From assembly GCF_017939745.1 (NCBI RefSeq), contig NZ_JAGKQQ010000001.1, positions 6,089,299-6,153,298 on the forward strand: a stretch of DNA of 64,000 nt, read 5' to 3'. The notes under the pieces were generated by a model. It saw only the letters and a list, made by a program, of their open reading frames with translations. It did no database searches and had not been told where the DNA came from. A program made the translations under genes and the position numbers. Source of the DNA: Gemmata palustris. Its GTDB lineage: Bacteria; Planctomycetota; Planctomycetia; Gemmatales; Gemmataceae. This document shows, one piece after another, positions 4,338 through 43,772 of the stretch (positions are counted from its first letter, which is position 1; every line of letters begins with the position of its first letter).

Positions 4338-5423
4338 TTAGCGCTGCACCCGAGCCCCGGCGCCGGAGGCGAACGCTTCGACCTCCGCGAGCGTGCCCAT
4401 CGTGGTGTCGCCGTGGTACGTGGTGAGCAGCGCGCCGTGTGCCCAGCCGAGATTGAGCGCCTGCTGGGTGTCGCGCCCGCTGAGGAGCCCGTAAATGGTG
4501 CCGGCCGCGAACCCGTCTCCGCCGCCGATGCGGTCGATCACGTCGAGCTGCGTCGTCGGGCTGACGTACCGCTTCCCGTCGAGCCACAGCACCGCGGCCC
4601 AGTCGTGCCGGTTGGCCGAGTGCGTTTCGCGGAGCGTGGTCGCCACCAGTTTGATGTTCGGGAACTCCTTCACCGTGTTCTCGATCATGCCGAAGAACAC
4701 GTCCGGGTTCAGCTTCGATTCCTCTTTCTTCGTCACTTCGGGGCCTTTGACGCCCAGTCCCTTCTGCATATCCTCTTCGTTCCCGATGAGGCAATCGACG
4801 TTCGCGACGATGCGCCGGAGCGTTTCCACCGCGCGCGTCTCGCCGCCGACCGGCTTCCACAGCTTCCCGCGATAGTTCAGGTCGAACGACACGATCGCGC
4901 CCTGCGCTTTCGCGGCCCTCATGCCCTCAATGATGAGCTCCGGGTTGTTTTCGGACAGCGCCGCGAAGATGCCGCCGGAGTGGAACCAGCGCACGCCGCC
5001 GGCCATGATCTTGGCCCAATCGAAGTCGCCGACCTTGAGGAGCGAAGCGGCTTCGTTGGCGCGATTGTAGAAAACGACCGGGGCGCGGACGCCCTGCCCG
5101 CGGTCGCTGTAGACGGTGGCGATGTTCGGCCCGCGCACGCCGTCGTGCTCGAAGTGCTTGTAGAACGGCGTGACGCCCATTTCGCGCACGCGGGCCTGCA
5201 CCAGGTCGCCGACCGGGTAGTTGACCATCGCGCTCGCGACGCCGGTGCGCAAACCGAAACAGTCGGAGAGGTTCGCGGCGACGTTGTACTCGCCGCCGGA
5301 AACGTGAACGTCGAACCCGCGGGCCTTGCGGAACGGCGTGACACCGGGGTCGAGCCGGTGGACCAGTGCTCCGAGCGAGAGGAAGTCGAGCGCGCAGGTG
5401 TCGGTGCGGATCGGAAGAGGCAT
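4338..5423 (-). CDS. PfkB-family carbohydrate kinase (2-keto-3-deoxygluconate kinase-like)
   Basis: C-terminal DRIGGGDGFAAG anion-hole/ATP motif and N-terminal GG dipeptide region typical of the ribokinase/PfkB family. Confidence 0.8.
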   Translation of the reverse strand: MPLPIRTDTCALDFLSLGALVHRLDPGVTPFRKARGFDVHVSGGEYNVAANLSDCFGLRTGVASAMVNYPVGDLVQARVREMGVTPFYKHFEHDGVRGPNIATVYSDRGQGVRAPVVFYNRANEAASLLKVGDFDWAKIMAGGVRWFHSGGIFAALSENNPELIIEGMRAAKAQGAIVSFDLNYRGKLWKPVGGETRAVETLRRIVANVDCLIGNEEDMQKGLGVKGPEVTKKEESKLNPDVFFGMIENTVKEFPNIKLVATTLRETHSANRHDWAAVLWLDGKRYVSPTTQLDVIDRIGGGDGFAAGTIYGLLSGRDTQQALNLGWAHGALLTTYHGDTTMGTLAEVEAFASGAGARVQR

Positions 5424-9250: not shown

Positions 9251-12200
9251 TTACTTGGTACTACCGCCGACGAAGATCCCGGGCGAGGGGGGCATGTTCA
9301 CCGGCACGGCCAGGAAGCTGTCCAGGAGGTCCAGCGTCTGGCCGTCGAAGACCTTGACGTGCGGGGCGCTGCCGCCCGCGCCCGTGAGGATGTCCGCGAG
9401 CCCGTCGCCGTCGCGATCGATCGCCCCGACGCGGACCCCGAACGTTGCACCCGGGTACGCGATGAAGCTCTGCAGCTCCGCACCCGTCAGCGCGTCGAGG
9501 GCCTTCACGTGCGGTGCGTTCGTCGCCCCGGTGATGATCTCGGCGCGCCCGTCGCCGTTCAGGTCCCCGGCCGCGACGTAGATGCCCCCGAGGTACCCGG
9601 CCCCGTATGCGAAGTAGCTCCCGAGGAGTTGCCCGTTGTTCTGCCCCGAGAACGCCTTGACGTGCCCGGCGAACGTGGCCGACCCGGTAATCACGTCGGC
9701 GAGGCCGTCGCCGTTTACGTCGCCCGCGCCCACCGTAACCCCGACCGGGTTCCCGCCGCTCGTCGAGTAGGCGAAGAAGCTCAGGAGCGTGTCCGCGGGG
9801 TTGCGCCCCGAGAACGCCTTGACGTGGTCGTTGGCGATGGCCGTGCCGACGACGATGTCCGCGAACCCGTCGCCGTTCACGTCCCCGGCCGCCACGTTCA
9901 CCCCGCCCGTGTACCCGATGAACGTGAAGAAGCTCGCGAGTTCCGAGTAATCGGACCCGCTGTACACCTTCACGTGCCCGCCGGGCGCCCCCGCCCCCGC
10001 GGACACGATGATATCGCTGATCCCGTCGTTGTTCACGTCCCCGGTCGCCACCTTCACCCCCAACGTGTAACCGTCGAAGGGCGTGAGCACCCGGAGCAGC
10101 GCGCCGGTCCGCGGGTCGAAGACCTGGACCGTGGCGACCGGACCCGCGTCCGTGCCGACCACCAGGCGCGCCTGCCGGTCAACGATCTGGGACGCGGTAC
10201 CGGACCCGGACCGGTAGAACGTGTCGCCCGAGTAGACGGCCGAGATGATGCTCGTGCCCGCACGGATCGTGCTGGTGCTGAGGCTCGCGGCGCCGGTCGC
10301 GTCGAGGGCCACAACTCCCAAGACCTCGCCGGTCGTGGAGTTGATGAAGGTAATCGTGCCGGTCGGGACCGCGAGCCCGGTCTGCCGCGCCACCCGCGCG
10401 ACGAAGCCGACCGTGTCCCCGAAAACGCTCGGCCCGTTCAGTGCCTGCAGGGTCGTCGTCGAGACGACGGTGACCGACTGTATCAAGCGCAGATCGGTCT
10501 GGGTGCGTGCTTCGTAGGTGGACGGGGTCGGCGTGAACGTCGCGGTAACGGTATACGAGCCGGCGTTCGCGAACGTCGTCAAGAACGAGGCCGCCGCCTG
10601 ATTGAGCGTGCCCGTTGCAGCGAGCGCTTGCGTCCCGATCGACACGCCGTTGACGAAGAACTCCACCGTGCCCGCCGGTACAGCGTCACCGGCCGCCGCG
10701 GGTGCGATAGTGACGGTGTATGTCACGGCTTGACCGGGGAGCGACGGGTTGGTATTCGACTGGATCGTCGCGGTCGAAGCGAGGGCGAGCACGCGGACGA
10801 GGACACTGTTCGCGGTGTAGTCGATCTGGTAGGTCCGGGTGCCGATGGTGAAGGTCGCCAGGTCCGCCAGCCCACTGAAAGTACCGGTAACGCCGCCCGT
10901 GGCCGTAAGGATCGTAAACGTGGCGCCCACGTTGGGACTGAAGGTCGGGCTGAACACCAGGGTCGCGCTGTTGTTGAGCGTCGCGATCCCGCTGACCGCG
11001 ACGCTGTCGTAGCCGGACCCGAGCGTCGTGCCGTTCGCCTCCACAACGAAGGTCGAGGAGTAAAAGGTCAGATCCCCGTTGATACTGAGGAGCGCGGGAC
11101 TGAGCCCCGGCGAGAGCGTACCGCCGGAGGTCACCGTGACGCTCCCAACGGTCCCGGTTCCACCGAGCGTGGCGCCGGGGCGCACCTCCACCGGCGCGTT
11201 CCTCAGGTCCGTGTTCACGAACACGGTCCCGCCGACGATGATCGTCGTGCCGGCGTAGCCGAGACTGGCGGGGCCGTCCAGCGTGAGCGTGCCGGTACCG
11301 ACCTTCCCCACCCCGCCGCCCGCGGTACCCGTGATGGTGCCCGAAAAAACCGACGAAGAGTTATCGCCGCCGATTATCAGCGCCCCGGCGCCGAGCACGA
11401 GTGTGCCCGAGCCCGATAGAGAGGCGACCGCGTCCGATTGACCGTTCAAGTCCAGCGTGGTCCCCGGCGCGAGCGCAACGACGGTGCCGTCGGGGAGCGT
11501 GTTGCTCCCGGTCAACTGCAGGGTTCCGCGGGCGACCGTGGTCGTACCACTGTACGTGTTCGCCCCGCTGAGGCGCAGTTCCCCGCCCCCGTCCTTGATG
11601 ATCCCGTCACCGGGGCTCCCGGAGATCACGCCGCTCACCTCGAGGAAACCGTCCTGCGCGGCCGTAACCGTCTTGTTGGGTGTCGGGAGCGTGGCCACCA
11701 CCATCTGGGTCGGAGCCACCGTCGCCGTCTGGCCCTCGTAGAACGTGTCCCCGGTGTACGCGGCGGTGATCGTGTGGGAGCCTTGAGTCAGAGCCGATGT
11801 TGTGAACGACGCCACGCCACCGGTAAGAGGTATTGCGATCGCGCCCGGCATAGCGACCCCGTTATCGAAGAACGTCACCGTCCCGGTCGGCGCGGGGTTA
11901 GCGGCGACCTGGCGCGTGGCGGTGAAGGTGAACGTCACGCTCTGGTTCACCAGGGACGTGTTGGCGCTCGAGCGGAGCTGCACAGTGAGGGGGTTGGTAA
12001 CCGCCTGCTGCGGCCGGAGCTGCACCGTCGTGTCCGCATAGGCAGATCCGGCGCCCGCGGCGTACCTGGCGGTGATGAAGTGCGTGCCGAACGTCAGGTT
12101 CGAGAGACTGAACGAGGCGAAACTGGTGAGCCCACCCGCGGGGGTGGTGAGATTCACCGCCGCGAGCTGCGTCGCCCCGTCGAAGAACGTCACCATCCCA

Positions 12201-15200
12201 CCGGGCACCGGATCACCGGCCTGACGGGTGGCAACGAAATCGAACGTTACAATTTGCCCCGTTGACGACGGGCTGGCGCTCGAGCTGAGCTGGATCTGGA
12301 GCGGGGTGGCCACCACCTGGACCGGCCCGAGGGTCGCGGTCCCGCCCGCGTTGCCCCCGTCCCCGGAGTACACGGCGGTGATGGCGCGTAATCCGGCAGG
12401 CAGCGCGTTAGTGGTAAACGTTGCCACCCCGTTGACCACGTTAACGGGGACGGTGTTGAGCGGGATGCCGGCATCGAAGAAATTCACCTGCCCGGTCGCG
12501 GTCGCGGAGTTGACCTGGAAAGTGAAGGTGATGGCCTGCCCGACCGGGGTCGGGTTGGCGTTGGAACTGAGGAGCAGCACGGGGGCGTTGACCACGATCT
12601 GCCCGCCCAAGAGGACCACCGTTTGGGCCTCGTAGAACGGATCCCCGGAGTACACGGCAGTGATCACGCGGGTGCCCGCGGCCAGGGTCGAGATCAGGTC
12701 CGAGGTCGCCTGGCCGTTCACGAGTGTCTTCGCCACACCGATGATGGTGGCACCATCGAAGAACGTTACTGTCCCGGTCGGCACGGGGCTGCCGAACTGG
12801 TTCGTGGCGGTGAAGTTGAACGTCACACCCTGACCCACGGCGGACGAGTTGGCACTGGACGTGAGCAGAAGTGACGGGGCGTCGACGACGATCTGGCCCC
12901 CAAGGAGGGTGACGCTCGAGGGGGCGTAGTACGCATCACCGGAGTACTGGGCAGTGATGACGTACACCCCGGCACCCAGCCCGGAGTTCAGCGTCGCGAC
13001 CCCGTTGGCGTTCAGGAAAGCGCCACCGATCGGAGTCGTAACCCCGTTTGCCGTGGCAAAGAATGTGACACTCCCGGTTGGGAGCGGGTTGCTCGCCTGC
13101 GACCGGGTGATCGTGAACGTGAACGCCGCGTTCCCGGGGCTGGTCTGGTTCGCGTTCGAGGTGAGGAGTTGCCGCGAGGGGGCCCCGACCACCTCCTGGG
13201 TCGACGGCAGCGCCACGGTCGTGCCCGCGTAGACCGCGTCCCCGGAGTACTCGGCGGTGATCGTGTGGCTCCCGGCCGACAGGTTGCTCGTGGTGAGCGT
13301 GAACGTCGTGACCCCGACGTTGAAAGAGGGAGTGCCGAACCCGAGGGAGGTCGCGCCGTCGAAGAACTCCACCGACCCGCCCGCGGCTGGCCCGCTCCCG
13401 GTGATGATGTTCACGGTGAACGTGACTGCGCTACCGAATTGAGACACGGCCGAACTCGAGAAGAACTCGGTCGCCGCCAGCGACTTCACGCTGAAGGTGC
13501 GCGTGACCCCGCCGAGGGACACGTTACCGGTGATCTTCGCGGTGTCGCCCGCACCAGCAACGAGCACGTCGCTGGCGAGGGTCAGCAACCCGGCCCCAGT
13601 CGTCAACTCGCCGCCGGCGAGGGTCACCGCGCCGAGCGTCTCATTGAACCCGTTCAGGTTGAGTAGCCCGTCCTGCTGGACGCGCACGCGAATCGTGGTC
13701 GCGCTGACCGATTCGGGGATCTGGTTGGACGCTTCCAGGCGCAGCTCGGCCGAGTTATTGGCACCGGTGCCGTCGCCGACGAACACTTGACCGTTCAGCG
13801 CGTTCAGGCCGGGCGTTTTCGCGAGCGTGAGGCGCCCGTCGTCGACGAACGTGGGCTTGACGAACGTGTTATTCGCGGTCCCGCTGAGGCGCAACTCACC
13901 GGCGCCGATCTTGTGGAAATCGGCGTCACCACTCACAACGCCCGAAAACGTGAGCGAGCCGCCGGCGGCCACGTTAATATCGGCCCGGGTCGCGTCAACG
14001 CCGAGGAGAGTGATGAGGCCGGTGATTTGACTGTTGCCCGGGCCGACCACGAGAGCGCCGGTACCGGACACCCCGGTCCCCGAAAGTGTCAAGGCTTCGG
14101 TCATGGTGATCGCATTGGCCACTTGCAGCGTGGCCCCCGCGAACACCCGAGTACCGGCCCCGTTGGTCCCGCCCAGAGACTGGTTGGATTGGATAATGGT
14201 CAGCCCCTGACGCAGGGACGTGGACCCGAGGTACGTGTTGTTCCCAGAGAGGGTCAGGGTTCCGGTCCCGGTCTTTTCCAAGCTCGGAATGGTGCCCCCG
14301 GGGGGCGTCGCGACGTCGCGGATGCTGCCCGAGACAGTCAGCGAACTCCCACCGTCGACGTTGAGAGAGGCCGCAGATCCGAGCGTGGCGGCGCCACTGA
14401 ATGTAATCGCCGACCCGCCGATGATGTGAACCGCGCCACTGGTCTCGAACCCGACACCGTTCAGGACCAGCGGCCGTGCTAATGTGTAATTCCCCTCGAT
14501 TTGAAGGGTACCAACCGCCCCGTCCGTACCCGAAGTCGAGTTAACCGTAACGGTACCACTGGACCCAAGGGCCAGAGCGTTAGCGATCTCCAAGGTGCCG
14601 TTATTGACGTTCGTGTTACCGGTGAAGGGCGTGAAGCCGGTGGGCACCCCGGTCGCACTGTTGTTGCGAGCGATGCGAACATTCCCCTGGTCGGTCTTCG
14701 ACATATCGGCCGCACCACCGAGCGCCCCAGAAAGCAGCAACTCGCTGCCCTGAGTCGCCCCGATGTTTGAAGCGCTCTGCAGGGTAATGGTGCCGAGCCA
14801 CGTGGACGCGCCCACGAAGTCCAAAAGCAGAGCGCCGAGGCGCCGCTGGGCAAGGTCCACGAATATGCCGGGGCCGTTCAGGAAAAGTGTTTCGTTAACG
14901 GCGAGCCCACTGTCGAGCCTCAGAGTTGTGCCGTTGAACACCGTGGTCGAGAAACCGGGCGAGAGCGCATTGTTATCGTAGATCGTGACGCTCCCCCCCC
15001 GAATCAGAGTATTGCCCCCGTAAGTGTTCCCGACCTCCAACTCCAAATCACCGGCGCCCACCTTCGTCAGATTGCCGCTCCCACTGATCCCGGTGGTATC
15101 GACAATGAGCCCCGTCCCAGGGGTTCCCAGCGTAAAGACGTCGACGCCGATGCTCACGTTGCCAATGAGCGCGATCCCCCCGGACCAGGTACCGTGCGGC

Positions 15201-16234
15201 AGTTGCGTGGTCGTAGAACCGCGGAACGTGCGGTACGGGTCATTCATACCGCGGAGGGCCCCCAACCCGCCCACCCCGTCCCCGACGAGGTCGAGCGAGT
15301 CGGAGACGGTGGCCCCGTTCGCAATGCCCATCGTCGCACCGAAGTCCACGACGGTTCCGCGGACCGTGTCGCCGAGTGCGTTGTCGCTCGAGGCGATAAG
15401 GATGCCCTCAGCGACACGCACCCCACCGGTGAACGTGTTGTTCCCGGCCAGCGCGATCGTGCCGGTCCCCCGCTTCAGCAACCCGCCCATCCCCCCGGCC
15501 GGGTCGATGATGTTCGCGTTGATGTACAACACACCGACGCCATCGCTCCGGAACTCCTGGTTGAGGCCGTTCAACTGGACGGTCAGGTTCGAAACGCCGT
15601 TCCCCGGCGTGAACGTCGGCCCGAGCAGCGAGAGCCCGGCGAGCGAACCTACGGTCTGCGGGATGTTGGCAGTCACGCGCCCCAGGATCGTCAGCGTCGT
15701 GCCCGCGGTGAGTGCGTCGATGTGATAATTGTCGTCGTTGATCTGCAGATTGCCGATGATCCAGTTCTTGCGGGTCGCAAAGCTGTGAAACGGGTTATCA
15801 TCGATGATGGAGTTCGCGAGCTTCCCGCCGTCGATCCCTACGGCCGGAGGAGTGGGGGGCGGGTTGTGAGCCCCGTTCGGGAAGATGAACGCGCCGTTGA
15901 CGATCGCCGCAGGGGGCTTGTTGGCGGCCGCGAGCCCGGCCGGGAAGATGACATCGTCCCCGTCCTGGGGAATATTACCGAGCTGCCAGTTGAGGGAATT
16001 GCTCCACAAGGCGGATAAATTCCCACCCGTCGGGGCAGGGATCCCACCACCGGTCCACACCGCGACGGCCATCAGGGCGCGGTCCTCCAGCGCCTCGACC
16101 GTGAGCGCCGGCTGAATCGGGGCGCACGCACCCTGACCGACAAACCGCTTCTTGAGCAATTGGCGAAGCCACGATCGCGACATAGCTGTACCCGCGTGGT
16201 GTTTATGGACTGTATGTTCCGTGTCAAAAACCAA
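9251..16234 (-). CDS. giant (~2,300 aa) secreted cell-surface protein: N-terminal PATR (autotransporter-associated beta-strand) repeats, Ig-like array, C-terminal FG-GAP/VCBS repeats
   Basis: N-terminus …LTVEALEDRALMAV… export motif. Repeated GTGTLTLSGNNTY / LRLSGANTYSGTTTV units (PATR). Many ~100-aa VTFxV…TAxYSGD Ig-like repeats. C-terminal DVNGDGxADIxxG FG-GAP repeats. True start may be the Met at 16183. Confidence 0.8.
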   Translation of the reverse strand: MVFDTEHTVHKHHAGTAMSRSWLRQLLKKRFVGQGACAPIQPALTVEALEDRALMAVAVWTGGGIPAPTGGNLSALWSNSLNWQLGNIPQDGDDVIFPAGLAAANKPPAAIVNGAFIFPNGAHNPPPTPPAVGIDGGKLANSIIDDNPFHSFATRKNWIIGNLQINDDNYHIDALTAGTTLTILGRVTANIPQTVGSLAGLSLLGPTFTPGNGVSNLTVQLNGLNQEFRSDGVGVLYINANIIDPAGGMGGLLKRGTGTIALAGNNTFTGGVRVAEGILIASSDNALGDTVRGTVVDFGATMGIANGATVSDSLDLVGDGVGGLGALRGMNDPYRTFRGSTTTQLPHGTWSGGIALIGNVSIGVDVFTLGTPGTGLIVDTTGISGSGNLTKVGAGDLELEVGNTYGGNTLIRGGSVTIYDNNALSPGFSTTVFNGTTLRLDSGLAVNETLFLNGPGIFVDLAQRRLGALLLDFVGASTWLGTITLQSASNIGATQGSELLLSGALGGAADMSKTDQGNVRIARNNSATGVPTGFTPFTGNTNVNNGTLEIANALALGSSGTVTVNSTSGTDGAVGTLQIEGNYTLARPLVLNGVGFETSGAVHIIGGSAITFSGAATLGSAASLNVDGGSSLTVSGSIRDVATPPGGTIPSLEKTGTGTLTLSGNNTYLGSTSLRQGLTIIQSNQSLGGTNGAGTRVFAGATLQVANAITMTEALTLSGTGVSGTGALVVGPGNSQITGLITLLGVDATRADINVAAGGSLTFSGVVSGDADFHKIGAGELRLSGTANNTFVKPTFVDDGRLTLAKTPGLNALNGQVFVGDGTGANNSAELRLEASNQIPESVSATTIRVRVQQDGLLNLNGFNETLGAVTLAGGELTTGAGLLTLASDVLVAGAGDTAKITGNVSLGGVTRTFSVKSLAATEFFSSSAVSQFGSAVTFTVNIITGSGPAAGGSVEFFDGATSLGFGTPSFNVGVTTFTLTTSNLSAGSHTITAEYSGDAVYAGTTVALPSTQEVVGAPSRQLLTSNANQTSPGNAAFTFTITRSQASNPLPTGSVTFFATANGVTTPIGGAFLNANGVATLNSGLGAGVYVITAQYSGDAYYAPSSVTLLGGQIVVDAPSLLLTSSANSSAVGQGVTFNFTATNQFGSPVPTGTVTFFDGATIIGVAKTLVNGQATSDLISTLAAGTRVITAVYSGDPFYEAQTVVLLGGQIVVNAPVLLLSSNANPTPVGQAITFTFQVNSATATGQVNFFDAGIPLNTVPVNVVNGVATFTTNALPAGLRAITAVYSGDGGNAGGTATLGPVQVVATPLQIQLSSSASPSSTGQIVTFDFVATRQAGDPVPGGMVTFFDGATQLAAVNLTTPAGGLTSFASFSLSNLTFGTHFITARYAAGAGSAYADTTVQLRPQQAVTNPLTVQLRSSANTSLVNQSVTFTFTATRQVAANPAPTGTVTFFDNGVAMPGAIAIPLTGGVASFTTSALTQGSHTITAAYTGDTFYEGQTATVAPTQMVVATLPTPNKTVTAAQDGFLEVSGVISGSPGDGIIKDGGGELRLSGANTYSGTTTVARGTLQLTGSNTLPDGTVVALAPGTTLDLNGQSDAVASLSGSGTLVLGAGALIIGGDNSSSVFSGTITGTAGGGVGKVGTGTLTLDGPASLGYAGTTIIVGGTVFVNTDLRNAPVEVRPGATLGGTGTVGSVTVTSGGTLSPGLSPALLSINGDLTFYSSTFVVEANGTTLGSGYDSVAVSGIATLNNSATLVFSPTFSPNVGATFTILTATGGVTGTFSGLADLATFTIGTRTYQIDYTANSVLVRVLALASTATIQSNTNPSLPGQAVTYTVTIAPAAAGDAVPAGTVEFFVNGVSIGTQALAATGTLNQAAASFLTTFANAGSYTVTATFTPTPSTYEARTQTDLRLIQSVTVVSTTTLQALNGPSVFGDTVGFVARVARQTGLAVPTGTITFINSTTGEVLGVVALDATGAASLSTSTIRAGTSIISAVYSGDTFYRSGSGTASQIVDRQARLVVGTDAGPVATVQVFDPRTGALLRVLTPFDGYTLGVKVATGDVNNDGISDIIVSAGAGAPGGHVKVYSGSDYSELASFFTFIGYTGGVNVAAGDVNGDGFADIVVGTAIANDHVKAFSGRNPADTLLSFFAYSTSGGNPVGVTVGAGDVNGDGLADVITGSATFAGHVKAFSGQNNGQLLGSYFAYGAGYLGGIYVAAGDLNGDGRAEIITGATNAPHVKALDALTGAELQSFIAYPGATFGVRVGAIDRDGDGLADILTGAGGSAPHVKVFDGQTLDLLDSFLAVPVNMPPSPGIFVGGSTK

Positions 16235-16794: not shown

Positions 16795-16819
16795 GACTGT
16801 TCGATCTTTGCCGAACACC

Positions 16820-18247
16820 ATGCCGGGCCGCAACCGAATGTCCGTTAAGAGCCTGCCGCTAACCTCAACGCCCGGTGCCGGCACGTCCCGCGCGCCCGAG
16901 TCCAAGGGGAATTACGCCTTCATTAGCTTGGGCTGCCCGAAGAACACCGTGGACAGCGAGCGGATGCTCGGCAAGCTCGCCCAGGACGGCTACGCTCTCC
17001 AGCCCGGGGCCGACGGCGCGGACGTGGTGATTGTGAACACGTGCGGGTTCATTGAACCGGCCCGGCAGGAATCGCTCGCGGTCATCCGCGAAATGCTCCA
17101 ACTCAAAAAGGCCGGCAAGGTCGGCGCGGTGGTCGTGGCCGGGTGCATGGCCGAGCGCCAGCGCGAGGTGCTCCTCGAACAGGTGCCCGAGGTCGATCAG
17201 ATCGTCGGGGTGTTCGGGCGCGAGGAAATCGCCGACGTCGTGGACCGGGCCGTGTCCCAGCGCGACGAGCAGAAGTCACTGTTCCGCCCGGCCCCGGTTC
17301 GCGCGCTCGAAGACACCGCCCGTCTGCGCATCACCCCGCGCCACTTCGCGTACCTCAAGATCAGCGAGGGGTGCGACCGGGTCTGTACCTACTGCGCGAT
17401 CCCGAAGATGCGCGGGAAGCACGTTACGAAGCCGATCGAAGAGATCGTCCGCGAGGCGCACGAACTCGTGGCCGACGGCGTGCGCGAACTCATCATCGTC
17501 GCACAAGATACTACCTACTACGGAATGGACCTATACGGGCGCACGCGGCTCGCCGAGTTGCTGCGCGAACTCGACAAGGTCGACGGCATCGAGTGGATTC
17601 GCACGCTCTACGCCTACCCCGAGCACATTTCGGACGAACTGATCGAGACGTTCGCCGGCGCGACCAAGATCATTCCGTACCTGGACATGCCGCTCCAGCA
17701 CATTAGCGACCGCGTCCTGAAGCGGATGATCCGCCGCGTGGACCGCGCCGCGACCGAGAACTTGCTCCTGCGCCTGCGCGAGAAATGGCCGGACCTCGCG
17801 ATCCGCACCACGTTCATTACGGGTTTCCCCGGCGAAACGCAGTCGGAGTTCGAGGAACTCAAGCAGTTCGTTGCGGACTTCAAGTTCGAGCGCGCCGGCG
17901 TGTTCCCCTACTCGCTCGAACCCGGCACGCCGGCGGAGAAGCTCGACGGGCACATGCCCGAAGACGTGAAACAGGCGCGCGTGGCCGCGATCATGGAAGT
18001 GCAGCAGCGGGTCGCGTTCGGGTGGGCCGAAGCACAGGTCGGCAAAGAGCACCCCGTCATTATTGACGGCCCGGACCCGGAGTTCGCGAGCCACTTCCGC
18101 GGGCGGACCTTCGCGGACGCGCCGGAGATCGATTGCGAGGTCCGCGTGAAGGGCAAAAACCTGCGCTCCGGCGATTTCGTGCGGGCGAAGATCACCGCCG
18201 CCGACGGCTACGATCTCACCGCGAAGGCACTGGGCAAGTCGTGGTGA
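16820..18247 (+). CDS. rimO: ribosomal protein S12 methylthiotransferase RimO (radical SAM MTTase + TRAM)
   Basis: FISLGCPKNTVDSE N-terminal MTTase motif. Radical-SAM CDRVCTYCAIP motif. C-terminal TRAM-like region. ATG at 16820 preferred over the TTG at 16808. Confidence 0.85.
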   Translation: MPGRNRMSVKSLPLTSTPGAGTSRAPESKGNYAFISLGCPKNTVDSERMLGKLAQDGYALQPGADGADVVIVNTCGFIEPARQESLAVIREMLQLKKAGKVGAVVVAGCMAERQREVLLEQVPEVDQIVGVFGREEIADVVDRAVSQRDEQKSLFRPAPVRALEDTARLRITPRHFAYLKISEGCDRVCTYCAIPKMRGKHVTKPIEEIVREAHELVADGVRELIIVAQDTTYYGMDLYGRTRLAELLRELDKVDGIEWIRTLYAYPEHISDELIETFAGATKIIPYLDMPLQHISDRVLKRMIRRVDRAATENLLLRLREKWPDLAIRTTFITGFPGETQSEFEELKQFVADFKFERAGVFPYSLEPGTPAEKLDGHMPEDVKQARVAAIMEVQQRVAFGWAEAQVGKEHPVIIDGPDPEFASHFRGRTFADAPEIDCEVRVKGKNLRSGDFVRAKITAADGYDLTAKALGKSW

Positions 18248-18322
18248 GGTGAGTGGCGTGGGCAAAGGGCGCCGGTACCGCTAGAATGCCGGTCTTCGCA
18301 TACACATACCGGAGAACCGACA

Positions 18323-18433
18323 ATGGGCATTCAACACGCACCGAAGAGCCAGCGGAACGCTTCCAAGAAGCGCCGCAAGGCCCGCAAGCACAAGCTCCGC
18401 AGCACGAAGAAGTACAAGGGCGGGGTGCGCTAA
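18323..18433 (+). CDS. 36-aa highly basic small protein (bS22-like?), not in the ORF track
   Basis: ATG at 18323 preceded by GGAG 8 nt upstream. Translation MGIQHAPKSQRNASKKRRKARKHKLRSTKKYKGGVR, stop TAA 18431-18433. The Lys/Arg pattern resembles small ribosomal proteins such as bS22. Confidence 0.5.
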   Translation: MGIQHAPKSQRNASKKRRKARKHKLRSTKKYKGGVR

Positions 18434-18545
18434 AGCACCGCAACAGCATTGCAACGCGCGGCCGGGAGGTTCCCGGCCGTTGCTCATTTCACAGCCCGGC
18501 ACAAGGCACTTTGGTTCGCTCCACGATTGGGACGAGAAAAGCCGC

Positions 18546-18776
18546 GGATCAACGCAGATAACGCAGATAACGCAGATCAGACAAAGCAAAAGCAAAAACA
18601 GATTGGCCACAAAAAAGCAGAGGTCAGAAGGCAGAGAGCAGAGGACGAAAAGCAAGGTACCAGATCGGATGCGTATGGTTTCTCTAGCCCCATTCGAGGC
18701 AACAATACCTCTGCCCTCTGCCCCCTGCCCTCTTTTTTGTGGCTATTCCGTCTTCTGTCTTGATCTGCGTTGATCC
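18546..18776. repeat. long imperfect palindrome with purine-rich left arm, pyrimidine-rich right arm, and a 3x CGCAGATAA tandem repeat
   Basis: ggatcaacgcagat (18546-59) pairs with atctgcgttgatcc (18763-76). gccacaaaaaag (18606-17) pairs with cttttttgtggc (18732-43). AG-rich versus CT-rich arms. Local GC is well below the genome average. Confidence 0.6.
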
Positions 18777-18799
18777 GTGGCTCTTCATTCATCCTTGTT

Positions 18800-20110
18800 T
18801 CAATCCGCTTCGCCGATCCGGGCGTCCTTTAGTGAGAAGAGGTACCCCTCGGGGTCCGCGCGGTTGAGGACGAGTGTACCCGTTACCTTGATGAGCCCCT
18901 TGCGGGCCTCGGCGCTTTTGCCCGCTTTCAGTTCCACATTCAGTAGCCCCGTCGGGTCGGGCACTTCGCAGAACCAGCACCCCACCGGGTATTCAAGCAA
19001 CAGGAACTCCCGTGCCGCGAGTTCGTCCTTCACCGGCTGCATGAACCCGGTGAGCGCGACCGTTTTGCCGTCGAGTTGTTCCAGGTACTTCACGAACGCC
19101 GGACGGCCCTTCGCGTTGATGCTGGTCGCGGCGAGAAGGGGCCACGGCAGCGCGTTGGTCTTGTCGCTCTCGATCGCGGGCAAGAGCGCTTCGTCGAACG
19201 CCTTAATCAGCGGGCGCGACGACTTGGTCTTCAGTGTCCCGCGGTGCTGTTCGTGGCCCGGCTTCTTCGCGAGTTCATCGGCCGCGGCGCGGTACACGAG
19301 CCGGCGCTTGCGGAGGTCGGGTGAGCCGAGTGCGAATTCCGTAACACAGCCGTCGAGAGCGGCGGCCGCAGCGCGCACGTCGCCGAGGGCGTTGCACAGC
19401 TCGCCGAATTGCCACAAGAGTCTTGCATCCGCCGGCAGCCACAAACCGAGTTGTTGGACCGTAACCAGCGCATCGGCGGGGAGCTTCTTCAACTCTGCGT
19501 CTGCGAGCGCGCCGGCTTCGGGCGAACCGGACGCGCCGACGAACTTCACGCCGAACAGGTCATCAATCGTCGCCGGCTGGTTCGCGGCCTTACCTTCCTT
19601 GAGTCGGAGGCGCACGAGTTTGAGGTGCGCCTGCTCGAACGGCTTGAGTTTCGCGGGAGCGAGCCGAACGGCTTCTTCGAGTTGCACGCCCGCGCGTTCG
19701 AGGTCGCCGGTCAGTTGGAACGCGGTGCCGAGGTTCGCCGCGATGCGAAAGTGTTCGGAGAACTTGCGAACGGCCGGCGCGAGCACGTTGAGCGCACTGT
19801 CGGTTTTGCCCAGGCGAATATAAACCGCCCCGAGATCCGCGATTTCATCAGCCGTCAGTGCCCGCGTTTTTGCGAGTTTCTCCAGTCGTGTGGCCGCAGC
19901 GAGGTAGTCGTCACGGAGCGGCGAGGGCAACCCGTCGGGGCGCTCGCGCCCGGCGGCCCTCAGCGCGCGCTGGTCGGTCAGGAACCCGGACGGACGGCTC
20001 GGCAGTTCCGCGAACTGCTCACCGGAGTAGTGCAACCCGGCCCGTGCGAGTGCCGGTAGTGAAAGTACGGCGAGGGCACCCACGAGTACGCGCCCGCGGA
20101 ATGAGTTCAT
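18800..20110 (-). CDS. secreted protein, N-terminal TPR-like helical region and conserved C-terminal Cys-containing domain (unknown function)
   Basis: Signal peptide MNSFRGRVLVGALAVLSLPALARA at the internal Met (20110). C-terminal …EYPVGCWFCEVP…GYLFSLKDARI domain. Confidence 0.5.
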   Translation of the reverse strand: MNSFRGRVLVGALAVLSLPALARAGLHYSGEQFAELPSRPSGFLTDQRALRAAGRERPDGLPSPLRDDYLAAATRLEKLAKTRALTADEIADLGAVYIRLGKTDSALNVLAPAVRKFSEHFRIAANLGTAFQLTGDLERAGVQLEEAVRLAPAKLKPFEQAHLKLVRLRLKEGKAANQPATIDDLFGVKFVGASGSPEAGALADAELKKLPADALVTVQQLGLWLPADARLLWQFGELCNALGDVRAAAAALDGCVTEFALGSPDLRKRRLVYRAAADELAKKPGHEQHRGTLKTKSSRPLIKAFDEALLPAIESDKTNALPWPLLAATSINAKGRPAFVKYLEQLDGKTVALTGFMQPVKDELAAREFLLLEYPVGCWFCEVPDPTGLLNVELKAGKSAEARKGLIKVTGTLVLNRADPEGYLFSLKDARIGEAD

Positions 20111-24467: not shown

Positions 24468-24528
24468 CGAGCCGCGACCGCAGGGAACGGGAAGCGCCTC
24501 CCGGCTCCCTTGCGGTCGCGGCTCGTTG
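24468..24528 (+). terminator. long hairpin downstream of the MutS-like gene
   Basis: gagccgcgaccgcagggaa…tcccttgcggtcgcggctc, a ~17-bp imperfect stem. Confidence 0.4.
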
Positions 24529-29144: not shown

Positions 29145-29338
29145 CTATCAGATCTGCGGCATACAAATTGCCCCTGAGTTCACTTCTCGCGGATCGCAAC
29201 TCATAGAGCGGTCCTATCGATCCCGTTGGTTCGTGGTGATTTACCAATCCATCGAATTGTAGTACAACTCGTTTCAGGTTCGCGGACCGCGCCGACGCGG
29301 TGCCGGTCGGTTCGTGCCCCCTCTCCGAGGAACCTTCC

Positions 29339-30775
29339 ATGAGTCGCGTTCGGAACTCGGGCTGGACCCTGCCGGTGATAGCCGCCGGGAGTCTGATTGC
29401 GCTCGCGGCGTGGCAACTGGTGCCCGCCAACCAACCGCCTGCGCCGAAGCCGGACCAACCACTGGTCGCGGAGCCGGCTGCGGCCCAACCGCCGGCGGCC
29501 AACGACTTCGCCGCGGTCATGGCGAAGATGAAGGCCGCGAAAGCCGACATCGCGAAGAAGCATAACGAAATGCTGGCCGCGCGGTACGACCTCGCGGAGC
29601 GCGCCGCGGCGGACGGGAAGATGACGCGCGGCAAGGCCGTGCAGCAGGGGCCGCGCGCGAAGCTGGCCGCCGGGACCACGTGGGCCGCACTCGCGGACAT
29701 GAAGCCGGAAGAGATCCGCGAGAAGGGGCTGTTCCCCGCCGGGTACCTACCGCTGCCGCACCCGAACCACCCCGAAGGCGGGATGCTGTTCCCGAAGTTC
29801 CACATCGACGAAATCAAGAAACAAGAGGCGCGCGACCTGACGCGGTTCGATCTCGATTTCGACCTTCCCGACCACTTCCTGCCCGAGTTCCCGCCGCCGA
29901 TCTTCCTGACCACCCGACTCGACCTCGGCGACATCTCGAAGGGTAAGCTCGTCACCATCGACAACTTCGAGGAGCTGTTCAAGGACGCACTGAACCCGAA
30001 ACAACTGGAAGGGCTGCGGTTGCTCGTTACCCCGTTCCCGCAACAGCAGTTCAACATGACCGCCGACCGGCGCAGCGAGAAGGCGCACCGCGGTGTCACG
30101 TGCTTCGACTGTCACGTGAACGGCCACACGAACGCGGCCACGCACTTGGTCGGCGACATCCGACCGCAAGAGTTCCGGCACCGCATCGACGTGCCCTCGC
30201 TGCGTGGCGTGAACGTGCAGCGGCTGTTCGGCTCGCAGCGCGCACTGAAGAGTATCGAGGACTTCACCGAGTTCGAGCAACGGGCCGCGTACTTCGACGG
30301 CGACCACACGCAGGCCGCGCGGAAGGGCGTCAACCCGCTGGACCGCGGCACCCAGGTCCACTTCATGGCAGAGTTCCAGGATCTGGTCGACTTCCCGCCC
30401 GCACCGAAGCTGGATTTGTTCGGGAAACTCGATCAATCGAAGGCGACCGACAGCGAGAAGCGCGGCGAGGCGCTGTTCGTCGGTAAGGCGAAGTGTTCGA
30501 CGTGCCACCCGGCCCCGTACTACACCGACAATACGCTACACAACTTGCAGACCGAACGGTTCTTTAAGCCGGTGACGGTACTCGGGCGGACGGCGAGCGT
30601 AGACGGGCCGATCAAGACGTTCCCGCTCCGCGGTATCAAGGACAGCCCGCCGTACCTGCACGACGGCCGGTTGCTCACGCTCGAAGACACGGTCGAGTTC
30701 TTCAACCTGATTCTCGAAACGAAACTCACCGAGGACGAGAAGAAAGATCTGGTCGCGTTTATGAAGTGCCTGTAA
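29339..30775 (+). CDS. di-haem cytochrome c peroxidase-family protein (signal-anchored)
   Basis: Two CxxCH haem motifs (CFDCH, CSTCH). N-terminal TM/signal. Confidence 0.7.
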   Translation: MSRVRNSGWTLPVIAAGSLIALAAWQLVPANQPPAPKPDQPLVAEPAAAQPPAANDFAAVMAKMKAAKADIAKKHNEMLAARYDLAERAAADGKMTRGKAVQQGPRAKLAAGTTWAALADMKPEEIREKGLFPAGYLPLPHPNHPEGGMLFPKFHIDEIKKQEARDLTRFDLDFDLPDHFLPEFPPPIFLTTRLDLGDISKGKLVTIDNFEELFKDALNPKQLEGLRLLVTPFPQQQFNMTADRRSEKAHRGVTCFDCHVNGHTNAATHLVGDIRPQEFRHRIDVPSLRGVNVQRLFGSQRALKSIEDFTEFEQRAAYFDGDHTQAARKGVNPLDRGTQVHFMAEFQDLVDFPPAPKLDLFGKLDQSKATDSEKRGEALFVGKAKCSTCHPAPYYTDNTLHNLQTERFFKPVTVLGRTASVDGPIKTFPLRGIKDSPPYLHDGRLLTLEDTVEFFNLILETKLTEDEKKDLVAFMKCL

Positions 30776-30781
30776 TCCGGA

Positions 30782-31132
30782 TTTCGTTGGGATTTTGTAG
30801 GGTGGGTCCAGGCTTTGCGCAGGCCCACCAGCCGGTCTTTGGCTTGCTGGTAGGCCCGGGGCTTGCGAGGCATTTTTGGTCTTGTGGGTCTTGTAGGGTG
30901 GGTCCGGGCTCTGCGCCGGCCCCTATCCGGTCTTCGACTCGTCAATGAGGAGCTTGCGAGCGCTTCGTTTATATTCGCGCTCGCAAGCAGGTGTGGTGGG
31001 TCTGCGCAGAGCCTGGACCCACCCTACAACTACAACAAAGAGCTTGCGGGCGCTTCGTTTGTATTCGCGCTCGCAAGCGGGTGTGGTGGGCCTGCGCAAA
31101 GCCTGGACCCACCCTACAAAATCCCAACGAAA
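30782..31132. mobile_element. 351-bp MITE-like / nested REP-like element with perfect 48-bp terminal inverted repeats
   Basis: tttcgttgggattttgtagggtgggtccaggctttgcgcaggcccacc (30782-30829) is the exact reverse complement of 31085-31132. Internal imperfect inverted pair at 30891-30923 / 30995-31030. Two ~90-bp direct units each carrying a 12-bp-stem hairpin gcttgcgagcgc…gcgctcgcaagc (30951-30987, 31041-31077). Confidence 0.65.
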
Positions 31133-31135
31133 CCC

Positions 31136-32866
31136 TTACCCGACCTTCGCGTGTGTGCCGTTCGTGCTCGGCGGCTTGCTCTCGGTGGGTGATTCGCTGG
31201 TGAGCTTCGCGAGGTACTCGGGCACCTCCACGCCGCCGATGTCCTTCATCACTTGCATCATCGGCGGCATCATCCGGGCCATGTTCTGAAGGAACGAAGC
31301 CGTGCTCGACGTGCCGGCGGCCGCGTTCCCTCCCCCACCACCTTCCCACACCACCACCTTGTCGAACTTGATGTTCGAGATGGCCTTCGCGGAGGCGTCC
31401 GCGAGCGCGTCCATGTGTTCGAGCATGAGCAACTGGAACGCGGCCTGTGGGCTGCCGCACGCATCGATGATCTTCTTCAACCCCTCGCCCTTCTTCGCCA
31501 GGATCTCGAATTGGCCGCGGGCCTCGGCTTCGAGCTTCGCGTAGATGGTCGCGGCGGCGGCTTGCGCTTCGAGCTTCACGCGCTCCGCAGCGGCCTCGGC
31601 GTCCACGATTATCTTCGCCTTCTGAGCCTTCGCGGGAGCTTCGAGCGCGGCGCGCTGTTCGGCTTCGATCTTCTCGGCCTGTGCGAGTGCGGCCCGGGCC
31701 ATCGCCTTGTTCTGCGCTTCCAGAACCGCGGCTTCCGCTTCGCGCTTCTTCGTTTCGGAAATTTGATACGCCTCGGCGTTCTTCACCGCGAGCGTGGCCT
31801 GCGCGCCCGCGATACTGGCTTGCGCAGTGGCCTCACCGCCGATCGCTGTGGCATTGGCTTCAGCCAAACGCACGCGCTTGTCGCGGTCGGCCTCGGCGAT
31901 GCGCGATTCCCGCTCGAACACGGCTTGCTGCTCGCCGACCTTCTGGTCGCGGTCGAGTTCGGCGATGCGGATCGCTTGCTGGCGCTGCGATTCCTTGATG
32001 AGCGTTTCTTGTTCGAGCAGCGCGGTCTGCTCGCCGACCTCCCGGTCCTTGTCGAGTTGGGCGACCTTGATGGCCTGCTCGCGGGTCGCTTCGCGGGTGC
32101 CGATCTCGCGCACCTTCGTCGCGTTCGCGACCGAGATGGCCCGCTCGCGCTCGGCCTCCGCGACGCCGATCTGCCCCTTCTTCTCTTGTTCCGCCACGTC
32201 GATTTTCGCTTGCTGGATCGCGACCGCGGCCGCCTTCCGGCCGATGGCCTCGATGTAGCCGCTCTCGTCCGTGATGTCGGTGATGTTCACGTTGATGAGC
32301 ACGAGGCCGATCTTCTTCAGCTCCGGTTCGAGCGACTTCTGCACGCTCTCCAAGAACTGGTCGCGGTTGCGGTTGATGTCCTCGATCCGCATGGACGCGA
32401 TCACCTGCCGCAGTTGGCCGAAGATGATGTCGCGCGCCTGTTCCTTGATCTCCTGGGTGCCGAGACCGAGGAGCCGGATCGCGGCGTTCTGCATCGTTTC
32501 CGGGTCGGTGCCGATGGCGACGGTGAACACGCTGGGCACGTTCACGCGGATGTTCTCGATCGAGAGGGCGCCCTTGAGCGGCACTTCGATCTGGATCGGG
32601 TCGAGGTTGAGGTAGGCGTAGTCCTGAACGAGGGGCAGCACGAACGCCGCACCGCCGTGGACGCACTTGGCCGCGTTCCCGCCGCCGGTCTTACCGTAGA
32701 TCACGAGGATGCGGTTCGAGGGGCAGCGCTTGTAGCGCCTCACGAGGAGCATGAGGAGGCTGAAGAGGACCAGCCCGGCGGCCAGTGCGGTGACGACCGG
32801 CCACGGGACGTCCGCGAGGTTCGGGTCGCCGGATTTCGATTGAGCGAGGAGAGCGAGCGACAACAT
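31136..32866 (-). CDS. floT: flotillin-like SPFH/band-7 protein (YqiK/FloT type)
   Basis: N-terminal TM, SPFH domain, long Ala/Glu/Lys coiled-coil repeats. Start at MLSL… with GGAG 7 nt upstream. Confidence 0.85.
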   Translation of the reverse strand: MLSLALLAQSKSGDPNLADVPWPVVTALAAGLVLFSLLMLLVRRYKRCPSNRILVIYGKTGGGNAAKCVHGGAAFVLPLVQDYAYLNLDPIQIEVPLKGALSIENIRVNVPSVFTVAIGTDPETMQNAAIRLLGLGTQEIKEQARDIIFGQLRQVIASMRIEDINRNRDQFLESVQKSLEPELKKIGLVLINVNITDITDESGYIEAIGRKAAAVAIQQAKIDVAEQEKKGQIGVAEAERERAISVANATKVREIGTREATREQAIKVAQLDKDREVGEQTALLEQETLIKESQRQQAIRIAELDRDQKVGEQQAVFERESRIAEADRDKRVRLAEANATAIGGEATAQASIAGAQATLAVKNAEAYQISETKKREAEAAVLEAQNKAMARAALAQAEKIEAEQRAALEAPAKAQKAKIIVDAEAAAERVKLEAQAAAATIYAKLEAEARGQFEILAKKGEGLKKIIDACGSPQAAFQLLMLEHMDALADASAKAISNIKFDKVVVWEGGGGGNAAAGTSSTASFLQNMARMMPPMMQVMKDIGGVEVPEYLAKLTSESPTESKPPSTNGTHAKVG

Positions 32867-32891
32867 GATGTAACTCCGGTTGGGTGCGGCA

Positions 32892-33455
32892 TCAGGCCGC
32901 TTCGACTTCAACGGTGTCCGAGTTGATTACGGCGACGACTTTGATCGGTTTGCCGGTCGCGAGTTCGGTGCCCGCGGTCATCGCCTGGCACTCAACGGTG
33001 CGGTTCTGGAGCGCGAGGTGAACTTTCCCCGAACCCTCTTTCGCGCCGGGGACGCGCAGGTACACGGTACCCGTACAGCCGACCGAGCGCTCGACGCGAA
33101 CGGTGCCGTCGGCCTTGAGTTGCTTCAGCGTGTTCATCGCGGTCGCGACGAGGTAGAAGGTGGCTGCGCCCGAACCGAGGGCCGCGCCGAAGGCCGCGAG
33201 TTCGCTCGCCCCGTAATAGCGCGCCGTCAGCCCACCGAGACCGAAGAACAGCAGCCCGGACGTGAGGGTCCGAACGGACAACATCCCGAAGAACCAGTTA
33301 CTAACGCCTTTTTCGTGCAGCCCGTCGTGGGCGGTATCGTGACCCGTGTCGTGATCGGTATCGTGATCGCCGCCGAACCCGATCATCCCCGCAACAAGCA
33401 GACAAACAACGAGCGTGCCGCCCGTAACCGCACAAACCAAGAAAATCGTTTCCAT
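32892..33455 (-). CDS. nfeD: NfeD-like (YqiJ) membrane protein, operon partner of flotillin
   Basis: Membrane helices plus a C-terminal OB-fold-like beta domain. Located immediately upstream of the flotillin gene on the same strand. Confidence 0.7.
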   Translation of the reverse strand: METIFLVCAVTGGTLVVCLLVAGMIGFGGDHDTDHDTGHDTAHDGLHEKGVSNWFFGMLSVRTLTSGLLFFGLGGLTARYYGASELAAFGAALGSGAATFYLVATAMNTLKQLKADGTVRVERSVGCTGTVYLRVPGAKEGSGKVHLALQNRTVECQAMTAGTELATGKPIKVVAVINSDTVEVEAA

Positions 33456-43759: not shown

Positions 43760-43772
43760 TCGACGACTCGGT

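Follow-up and report, generated by a model that had tools for sequence, protein, structure and literature searches.

A nested tandem-repeat hairpin of a dispersed family at a convergent gene end in Gemmata palustris, a possible terminator or 3′-end hairpin

The element described here lies in a 64,000-nt stretch of the Gemmata palustris genome (assembly GCF_017939745.1, contig NZ_JAGKQQ010000001.1, positions 6,089,299 to 6,153,298), referred to below as the window, whose own numbering is used throughout. It is a 251-nt imperfect palindrome (18536-18786) inside the 367-nt gap between two convergent gene ends, those of a plus-strand open reading frame (ORF) of 36 amino acids (aa) downstream of rimO and of a minus-strand DUF3299/TPR gene. 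We found that the palindrome is composed of two nested hairpins and that its outer layer, GCCGCGGAT with 9-nt AACGCAGAT units, belongs to a dispersed family of hairpin repeats. With a probability of about one-half, we regard it as a dispersed tandem-repeat hairpin, similar to repetitive extragenic palindromic (REP) sequences or to MITEs (miniature inverted-repeat transposable elements), that would act as a terminator or 3′-end hairpin mainly for the minus-strand gene. The general kind is known: short tandem repeats in inverted arrays between genes, located where genes end, of which the element of the window is a nested variant.

Anatomy and folding of the composite hairpin

The palindrome was first noticed in an initial annotation made from the window sequence alone, which put its size at ~230 nt; the palindrome is indeed present and measures about 250 (251) nt. 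Its outermost arms (18536-18559 and 18763-18786) are 24 nt long and 92% complementary. Both perfect sub-stems reported at that time were recovered, one of 14 bp, in which GGATCAACGCAGAT (18546-18559) pairs with ATCTGCGTTGATCC (18763-18776), and one of 12 bp, joining GCCACAAAAAAG (18606-18617) to CTTTTTTGTGGC (18732-18743). The outer hairpin opens with GCCGCGGAT and carries the 9-nt repeats. Its left arm pairs with the right arm GTCTTG-ATCTGCGTTGATCCGTGGC-TCTTC, and the two surplus units on the left bulge out because the right arm has only about one complementary unit. Tandem repeats had likewise been noted, and (AACGCAGAT)x3 at 18551-18577 proved to be the sole such array in the window (0.03 expected by chance); the generic unit-array pattern matches 18543-18576, with 0.06 matches expected in shuffles.

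Inward of these repeats, the linker AAAGCAAAAGCAAAAACAG pairs loosely with CCGTCTTCTGTCTTG and leads to the inner module (18606-18743), which shows an A-tract, a GC-rich stem and T6 when read from either strand, the arrangement typical of bidirectional intrinsic terminators. The 3′ arm of the minus strand reads ...ctctgc-tttttt-gtggccaatctg-ttttt-gc-tttt-gc-ttt-g...gcggc-ttttctcgt, so ending in GCGGC-TTTTCTCGT after the T5, T4 and T3 tracts. The foot of the outer stem carries CTTTTCTC on this strand, and the plus-strand tail CTCTTCATTC is weaker. The nesting of two hairpins, the A6-stem-T6 layout of the inner one and the family membership of the outer motif all go beyond what the initial annotation had described (Table 1).

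A sharp drop in GC content, from ~0.65 in the surroundings to 0.46-0.53, and a strong purine/pyrimidine strand asymmetry were part of the same description, and both hold. Purines make up 74% of the left arm, where 120 nt contain only 7 T, and pyrimidines 77% of the right arm, where 81 nt contain only 4 A; a 120-nt purine fraction of ≥0.72 or ≤0.28 occurs nowhere else in the window. With 251 nt and a 63-nt loop the element is also larger than a plain terminator, as had been remarked.

Folding of the whole element gave -122 kcal/mol for the plus strand (z -10.2) and -133.6 kcal/mol for the minus strand (z -9.2), and none of 200 shuffled sequences folded as well. The inner module folded alone reached -71.4 kcal/mol (z -7.3) on the minus and -65.0 kcal/mol (z -6.0) on the plus strand. 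Overall, the minus strand folds ~10-12 kcal/mol better than the plus strand. Nine transition mismatches interrupt the stem, of which seven are G:U on the minus strand and two on the plus strand, a difference that is not significant by itself. A consensus terminator scan misses the long stems and returned only local stems of five pairs inside the arms.

Table 1. Features of the convergent junction and other hairpins of the window (strand "." denotes features listed without strand)
Feature	Position	Strand	Basis or remark
Whole composite imperfect hairpin, 251 nt: outer hairpin with inner hairpin at its apex	18536-18786	.	inverted repeats I1-I9, folding
Outer left purine-rich arm GAAAAG-GCCGCGGATC-(AACGCAGAT)x3-CAGAC; family head GCCGC, then 9-nt units	18536-18582	+	sequence, unit-array pattern
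Perfect tandem repeat (AACGCAGAT)x3	18551-18577	+	direct repeats
A-tract linker AAAGCAAAAGCAAAAACAGATTG; pairs imperfectly with 18744-18762; reads T5, T4, T3 on - strand	18583-18605	+	inverted repeat I1
Inner hairpin: GCCAC-A6-G, purine heptamer-like array, 63-nt loop, pyrimidine array, C-T6-GTGGC	18606-18743	.	sequence, fold
A6 (T6 on - strand, directly 3′ of inner stem): first candidate termination point of the DUF3299-gene transcript	18611-18616	-	sequence
Left heptamer-like array GCAGAGG TCAGAAG GCAGAGA GCAGAGG	18617-18644	+	direct repeats D3, D4, D7
Apical loop, 63 nt, with small local stems; without counterpart in relatives missing the inner module	18645-18707	.	folds
Right pyrimidine array CCTCTGC CCTCTGC CCCCTGC CCTC	18708-18732	+	direct repeat D8
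T6 directly 3′ of inner stem: candidate + strand termination point	18733-18738	+	sequence reading
Outer right pyrimidine-rich arm TATTCCGTCTTCTGTCTTG-ATCTGCGTTGATCCGTGGC-TCTTC	18744-18786	+	inverted repeats I3, I5, I7
CTTTTCTCGT at foot of outer stem: second candidate termination point of the - strand transcript	18532-18541	-	sequence
rimO	16808-18247	+	TIGR01125, 510 bits
36-aa ORF, very basic, 3′ of rimO	18323-18433	+	sequence MGIQHAPKSQRNASKKRRKARKHKLRSTKKYKGGVR
Compact GC-rich hairpin GCGGCCGGGA-GGT-TCCCGGCCGT, then TTGCTCATTT	18456-18483	+	inverted repeats I12, I13
DUF3299/TPR gene, convergent, stop codon 18802-18800	18800-20110	-	likely main client of hairpin
Hairpins at convergent junctions of the window	2207-2306, 18536-18786, 30779-31135, 43720-43760, 49606-49692, 52376-52409	.	

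The element in relatives and its dispersed family

Syntenic loci were found through the identical 36-aa protein in several Gemmataceae genomes. The closest relative (L002) has the same composite hairpin, with two AACRCAGAT units vs. three in the window. Its right arm contains ~17 perfect CCCTCTG copies (10378-10500) vs. ~3 in the window, and its left arm is unexpanded; to judge from the sequence, this expansion looks like a slippage-type length change that breaks the symmetry of the hairpin, and (CCCTCTG)n looks like a hypermutable heptamer microsatellite within the palindrome. In four further loci of SH-PL17 and massiliana type (L001, L003, L005, L006) only a hairpin of ~105 nt is found, GAAGAGCCGCGGATAAACACAGAGAACACGGATCAGGC...GCTTAATCCGTGTTCTCTGTGTTTATCCGTGGCGCCTTC. 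The inner module, present in the window and in L002, is absent from these four, which have a short loop instead, with boundaries too unclean to establish an insertion. Between the G18 clade (the window and L002) and the SH-PL17 clade the basal stem stays paired through two two-sided changes, C:G to A:T and T:A to G:C (GGATCAAC/GTTGATCC to GGATAAAC/GTTTATCC, and CAGAT/ATCTG to CAGAG/CTCTG).

At the end of the orthologous DUF3299/TPR gene a hairpin was observed in 11 of 12 Gemmataceae lineages, L138 alone being without one. A member of the family stands directly 3′ of the orthologous gene in Frigoriglobus tundricola (L134), where the opposing gene differs, and in L008 one stands directly 3′ of the 36-aa ORF. 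Strong hairpins of unrelated sequence follow the orthologous gene in L130, L131, L133, L137, L139 and L140. Hence the hairpin at this gene end is conserved by position, and its sequence turns over between lineages. A test of arm covariation and conservation had been suggested in the initial annotation; with the two compensated changes in Gemmata relatives and with some hairpin present here in 11 of 12 lineages, its outcome favours a maintained structure.

The wider distribution was examined with the motif GCCGC-N(1-4)-GAT[AC]AAC[AG]CAGA[GT]AA, scanned in one genome per species. The basal motif occurs in at least 120 stretches (131 matches listed) from at least 10 phyla. Represented among these matches are Betaproteobacteria, Acidobacteriota of several orders, Gemmataceae, Phycisphaerae, Gemmatimonadales, Chloroflexota, Nitrospira, Cyanobacteria, Obscuribacterales, Bacteroidota and others. 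Metagenome-assembled genomes (MAGs) make up nearly all of these hosts, some of which have several copies. Of the listed matches, 76 have the complementary arm downstream of the purine arm and six have it upstream, and the 5′-purine polarity of the window element is thus the rule of the family. A typical member, with a 10-nt unit, can be written A-rich...TTTA-GCCGCAGATAAACGCAGATAAACGCGGAT...loop...ATCCGCGTTTATCTGCGTTTATCTGCGGC-TAAA...T-rich, the flanks following the consensus A-rich...TTTA-GCCGC ... GCGGC-TAAA...T-rich. Members listed span 55-415 nt with a median of ~100, so the window element is long and not unique. Flanking A and T runs follow terminator polarity in 46 cases and the reverse in 22 (random rate 5% per stretch examined).

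Nesting recurs within the family, as a second, GCCAC-headed module lies inside the first in other phyla as well (L040, L057, L019). In one Frigoriglobus-like MAG at least four paralogues share a GCCGCACGAT signature specific to the lineage, and one of these, at an unrelated locus (L085), shows the same order as the window: the outer array, then CAGACAGAAGG, then a TGGCCAYAAAAAG inner hairpin. With a relaxed unit-array pattern a second member was detected in the window at 2207-2306 (shuffles give 0.06 matches), which brings the family-like hairpins in the window to two. This hairpin consists of the 9-nt units GCAGAGGGC ACAGAGGGC GCCGAGAAA and their complement, overlaps the ends of the convergent genes 613-2247 (+) and 2313-3443 (-), and has minimum free energies of -63 kcal/mol (+, z -6.7) and -60 kcal/mol (-, z -8.1).

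Several family loci depart from the simple hairpin. The same gene end in two related proteobacterial MAGs (L043 6890-7200 and L084 ~4560-4700) carries different structures, in one a (GCAAGTA)n hairpin and in the other a 450-nt series of five or six left-arm arrays (GCCGCCAAG..., CGCAGGACGCCGAGGACGCAGAGG, GCCGATGAACGCCGAT, CCACGGAACCACACGGAAAACACGG, GCCGCAGATAAACGCAGATAAAC, ACGCAAAGACGCAGAGGACGCAAAGG) with one right arm. This was the one informative pair in an all-against-all comparison of family loci for filled and empty sites, and there the hairpin was replaced, with no empty site. Some family arrays are in 5′ leaders rather than at 3′ ends: in L036 (~150-215) the solo array GCCGCAGATAAACGCAGATAAACACAGAT is followed, a few bases on, by what looks like a ribosome-binding site and by the ATG of a signal-peptide-like ORF. 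Gene contexts obtained by crude ORF calling (35 tandem, 14 convergent, 10 divergent, nine in an ORF) were not used as evidence, because in one "divergent" case the ORF call on one side was unsupported by Pfam.

The 10-nt unit GATAAACGCA of the family consensus (L010-L129) gives TAA in all three frames over three units, and the heptamers TAGTGGT, GTGCTGA and GCAAGTA give TAG or TGA in all three, so that many such 5′ arms would stop translation in any frame. Three-frame stop codons fit many members; as a general explanation the idea was dropped, since the 9-nt unit of the window and the stop-free heptamers do not fit.

Possible function and competing readings

If the element acts at the RNA level, it would form the 3′ end of the minus-strand DUF3299/TPR mRNA and, less so, be transcribed by read-through from the plus strand. 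The purine- and A-rich arm would emerge first, unable to fold on itself, and the pyrimidine- and U-rich arm would follow, upon which the long stem would zip up. Each U-rich tract standing right after a completed stem segment could then offer a chance of intrinsic termination, in the minus-strand order T6, then T5/T4/T3, then CTTTTCTC, and the finished hairpin would also block 3′-to-5′ exonucleases. Purine-first polarity is, by its sequence logic, the only polarity that would place U-tracts after the stem in both directions of transcription, and a purine-only 5′ arm should not misfold on itself while awaiting its partner. The number of tandem units may change by replication slippage, with the complementarity of the arms kept roughly by selection or by template switching between them.

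Regarding the strand served, the hairpin begins 13 nt past the stop codon of the DUF3299/TPR gene; on the other side it lies 103 nt past the stop of the 36-aa ORF, and a separate compact hairpin comes first. This compact hairpin (18456-18483) is kept in relatives, with one two-sided stem change (G:C to A:T) and a stronger T-tract, TTTTCGTTTTCT, and is likely the own terminator of the rimO/36-aa-ORF transcript. We favour the minus-strand gene as the putative main client because the plus-strand operon has this terminator-like hairpin of its own, and because the minus strand has the better fold, the larger share of G:U mismatches and the better U-tracts. The ratio of G:U mismatches between strands is 5:2 in L134, favouring the sense strand of the same gene, and 3:1 in L004. 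For a role as terminator or 3′-end hairpin in general speak the A6-stem-T6 inner module, the successive U-tracts along the minus-strand 3′ arm, the location 13 nt past a stop codon, the hairpin kept by position at this gene end, the A-rich and T-rich flanks across the family, and the hairpins that fill every convergent junction in the window with a gap of >40 nt.

Several observations weigh against termination as the role of the element. Its stems (36 to ~90 bp) and 63-nt loop are far beyond characterised intrinsic terminators, and the one-sided expansion in L002 shows that the structure is not tightly maintained. Within the family, a T-run within 25 nt of the 3′ end is clear in only 26% of the hairpins, and ~42% of the matches listed have no ungapped partner arm, some being solo arrays or serial left arms. 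G:U mismatches show no bias toward the sense strand across the family (68 vs. 64 in 27 co-directional hairpins, crude ORF calls). Many copies fill very short gaps between co-directional genes, where a strong terminator would cut off the downstream gene, so that a stabilising hairpin of REP type is more plausible there. Near-identical 10-nt units across phyla are left unexplained by a terminator role.

At a lower probability than the reading as terminator or 3′-end hairpin, the element could be a selfish or neutral palindromic repeat similar to MITEs or to REP doublets forming hairpins (REPINs), without host function, its terminator look inherited from the sites it occupies. Modules would spread within and between genomes, preferentially land or survive where genes end and inside the loops of hairpins already there, and drift in their arms by slippage. 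The near-identical motif in at least 10 phyla with several copies per genome (among the matches listed), the subfamilies peculiar to single lineages, with four or more paralogues in one MAG, the recurrence of the same composite order at the unrelated locus L085 and the nesting of modules in several phyla all fit such an origin. So do the presence of the inner module in the window and L002 and its absence from sister clades, the growth of CCCTCTG to ~17 copies on one side only in L002, the complete turnover of sequence at orthologous sites and the lack of a family-wide G:U bias toward the sense strand.

Against this, no target-site duplication was found. Non-TA flanks are complementary and not direct repeats: outside GCCGC...GCGGC they extend the stem (AACAG/.../CTGTT, CTTGA/.../TCAAA), and the frequent TTA/.../TAA is ambiguous, TA being palindromic. 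Transposases, including REP-associated tyrosine transposases (RAYTs), were not seen beside the copies, the eight flanking ORFs sampled having only aminotransferase, pirin and sigma-70 domains. The motif is near-absent from viral contigs (one match) and plasmids (two records, cyanobacterial), which indicates that phage or plasmid carriage is not the vehicle. The strict purine polarity of 76 vs. six and the A/T-tract flanks need a directional constraint, which selfishness by itself would not provide. The selfish reading is about where the element came from, a question apart from its present function; co-option as a terminator would agree with it, and it overlaps the best explanation.

A further reading, in which the outer hairpin represents an undescribed cross-phylum family of nested hairpins with tandem-repeat arms, acting as modular, stackable, bidirectional and perhaps mobile terminators, is put forward tentatively. 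Such a family would be characterised by the GCC[GA]C head, 9-10-nt units such as AGATAAACGC, a conserved GATCAGA-like inner junction and strict 5′-purine/3′-pyrimidine polarity, and its mechanism of spread would target the ends of genes or loops in hairpins already present. Neither Rfam nor the literature searched by literal sequence contained the GCCGC-(AGATAAACGC)n motif. That search returned nothing relevant for these repeats, and since most subscription journals were outside its scope an earlier description is possible; a search on Gemmata repeats, hairpins and terminators likewise gave nothing useful. The outer motif family and its cross-phylum spread are thus apparently undescribed.

A role at the DNA level, as H-DNA or triplex, as a cruciform or as a periodic protein-binding array of 9-10-nt units, is improbable. 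It would agree with the extreme purine/pyrimidine asymmetry, unique in the window, with a unit period (9 nt here, 10 nt in most family members) of about one helical turn, and with the ability of a long palindrome to extrude as a cruciform. However, purine runs in the left arm all stay below 8 nt, and pyrimidine runs reach 11 nt at most; H-DNA or triplex formation, which the initial annotation had raised, is not favoured because the arms are inverted rather than mirror repeats and lack long homopurine runs. Unit sequence and number differ between close relatives, unrelated hairpins occupy the site elsewhere, the element sits at gene 3′ ends rather than in promoter regions, and no candidate binding protein was identified. 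The complete turnover of sequence between lineages argues against a specific protein-binding site, the remaining reading offered in the initial annotation, and a periodic array fits it poorly; none of the three readings given there gained support.

Least probable of all is a structured small RNA (sRNA), which the annotation had also suggested, or a cis-regulatory RNA gene with its own transcription inside the intergenic region: the very stable fold and the basal-stem pairing kept across Gemmata clades would suit it, but Rfam gave only sub-threshold matches to generic miRNA precursors for the region (best MIR1858, 32.3 bits vs. a gathering threshold of 137) and likewise no real matches for eight family loci, our promoter scan, which covered sigma-70-type sites only, found none inside the element, the loop and inner module are unconserved even within the genus, unrelated sequences occupy the site in other lineages, and the arms are low-complexity tandem repeats.

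Known systems, neighbouring features and wider meaning

The element has the features of simple sequence repeat (SSR) and short tandemly repeated repetitive (STRR) arrays: head-to-tail units of 5-11 nt, convergent intergenic arrays and copy-number differences at the same locus. The units are (AACGCAGAT)x3, four GCAGAGG-like and three CCCTCTG-like copies, the last growing to ~17 in L002. Cyanobacterial STRR heptamers are reportedly a related phenomenon, and so are the direct arrays of the TAACTGA heptamer that lie upstream of start codons in Beggiatoaceae (PMC4679880). The closest description found is that of the inverted GGGAATC pairs of Xanthomonas, where intergenic heptamer arrays form 70-75 inverted pairs per genome with potential stem-loops (PMC4692102, Rehm et al. 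2015). Two species usually share the position of these arrays between the same genes, with lengths that vary; the arrays are not linked to insertion sequences and have an unknown function (PMC4692102). As in Xanthomonas, the arrays studied here are intergenic, built of short units (7 nt, and here also 9 nt) and arranged in convergent pairs with the G- or purine-rich array first. In contrast to the one G-rich unit of Xanthomonas, studied for G-quadruplex formation, the present units are not prone to form G-quadruplexes, several unit types are nested in one hairpin, modules have GCC[GA]C heads and the outer motif crosses phyla.

Bidirectional intrinsic terminators occur at convergent genes, and the element resembles them in showing A-tract, GC-rich stem and T-tract from both sides right after convergent stop codons. 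The GC-rich stem-loop, 3′ U-tract and post-stop position of intrinsic terminators are thus present, and compact size is not: characterised examples have a stem of ~5-14 bp and a loop of 3-8 nt, whereas here 36-90 positions are paired, the loop is 63 nt, the arms are tandem repeats and two layers are nested.

REP sequences, with their derived bacterial interspersed mosaic elements (BIMEs) and REPINs, are another system of this sort; REPs are imperfect palindromes of 20-40 nt with a GTAG head, mobilised by RAYTs, and stabilise mRNA 3′ ends in E. coli. The present family shares with them the extragenic hairpins, the lineage-specific subfamilies and the location at gene 3′ ends and in co-directional gaps, and may resemble them in copy number, with two family-like hairpins in the window and at least four in one related MAG; REP/BIME/REPIN hairpins can protect upstream mRNA from exonucleases. 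The family differs in having tandem-repeat arms that are not palindromic in themselves, the head GAAAAG-GCCGC (in the family (TTA)GCCGC), and no RAYT link seen in the flanking ORFs sampled. A REP-like cluster with GTAG heads does exist in the window (30797-31117) and looks quite different from the 18536-18786 element: four palindromes, GTAGGGTGGGTCCRGGCTYTGCGC...GGCCCACC, two per strand, fill 30779-31135 between the convergent genes 29300-30775 and 31136-32911 in a REP/BIME-like manner.

A MITE is marked by defined terminal inverted repeats, by target-site duplications and by a cognate transposase, and the Correia MITEs of Neisseria are long intergenic hairpins of 100-250 bp that are co-transcribed with neighbouring genes and can serve as terminators or RNase III substrates. 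The family likewise comprises dispersed intergenic long hairpins of 100-250 bp, but with complementary flanks instead of duplications; an autonomous element with the same ends was not seen in the 120 stretches (≤8 kb), where no systematic search for one was made. REP/BIME/REPIN elements and MITEs are the closest functional analogues, and their defining features fail here. Integron attC sites were set aside on direct reading: the consensus, R″ (RYYYAAC) ... R′ (GTTRRRY), has the opposite arrangement to the family ends TTAGCC...GGCTAA, and the neighbours are ordinary genes in mixed orientation. Comparison by eye with the consensus of the DnaA box, the IHF site, KOPS (FtsK-orienting polar sequences) and the Pho-box gave no fit.

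Long near-perfect hairpins stand exactly at gene 3′ ends elsewhere in the window (49606-49692, 43720-43760, 24468-24525, 52376-52409), with unrelated sequences. In L002 (16230-16397) an additional outer hairpin surrounds the one corresponding to 24468-24525, so nesting differs between relatives there too. Other Gemmataceae loci contain intergenic hairpins of 70-110 nt (L004 1735-1842, L008 122-192, L008 2131-2227, L007 4137-4236), whose arms are perfect arrays of quite different heptamers, TAGTGGT, GTGCTGA, GTTCCAG and CCTCTGT; some of these fill gaps of <10 nt to the next co-directional gene.

Among the genes of the locus, the product of the minus-strand gene matches, with 100% identity, a Gemmata sp. 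G18 protein named by NCBI as DUF3299 domain-containing protein. Just 5′ of the 36-aa ORF there is a sigma-70-like site, TGGGCA-17-TAGAAT (18259-18287), the sole one in 18200-18900. Identical copies of the 36-aa protein were found in 39 blocks of the sequence collection, and the contigs shown include several Gemmataceae genomes; its ORF usually lies 3′ of rimO and sometimes after ndk or other genes, and NCBIfam gave no match. Farther upstream, a 2327-aa protein with PATR, Big_3_5 and FG-GAP repeats is encoded at 9251-16234 (-), and has 1679-2355 aa in the syntenic loci of close relatives.

The practical conclusion for this one locus is modest: the element is non-coding, probably marks the 3′ end of the DUF3299/TPR transcript and readily mutates in length. 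That the 10-nt unit is nearly identical across phyla is the most interesting loose end; if the present reading is true, this unit, found in at least 10 phyla with subfamilies and nesting, would point to a widespread small repeat family absent from Rfam and the searched literature. The purine-first polarity would then have a simple mechanistic reason, in that it places U-tracts after the stem in both directions. Standard terminator predictors and annotation would miss such hairpins, as the consensus scan did here, and in Gemmataceae, as apparently in many bacteria of soil and freshwater, gene ends would be marked by long tandem-repeat hairpins instead of compact terminators.

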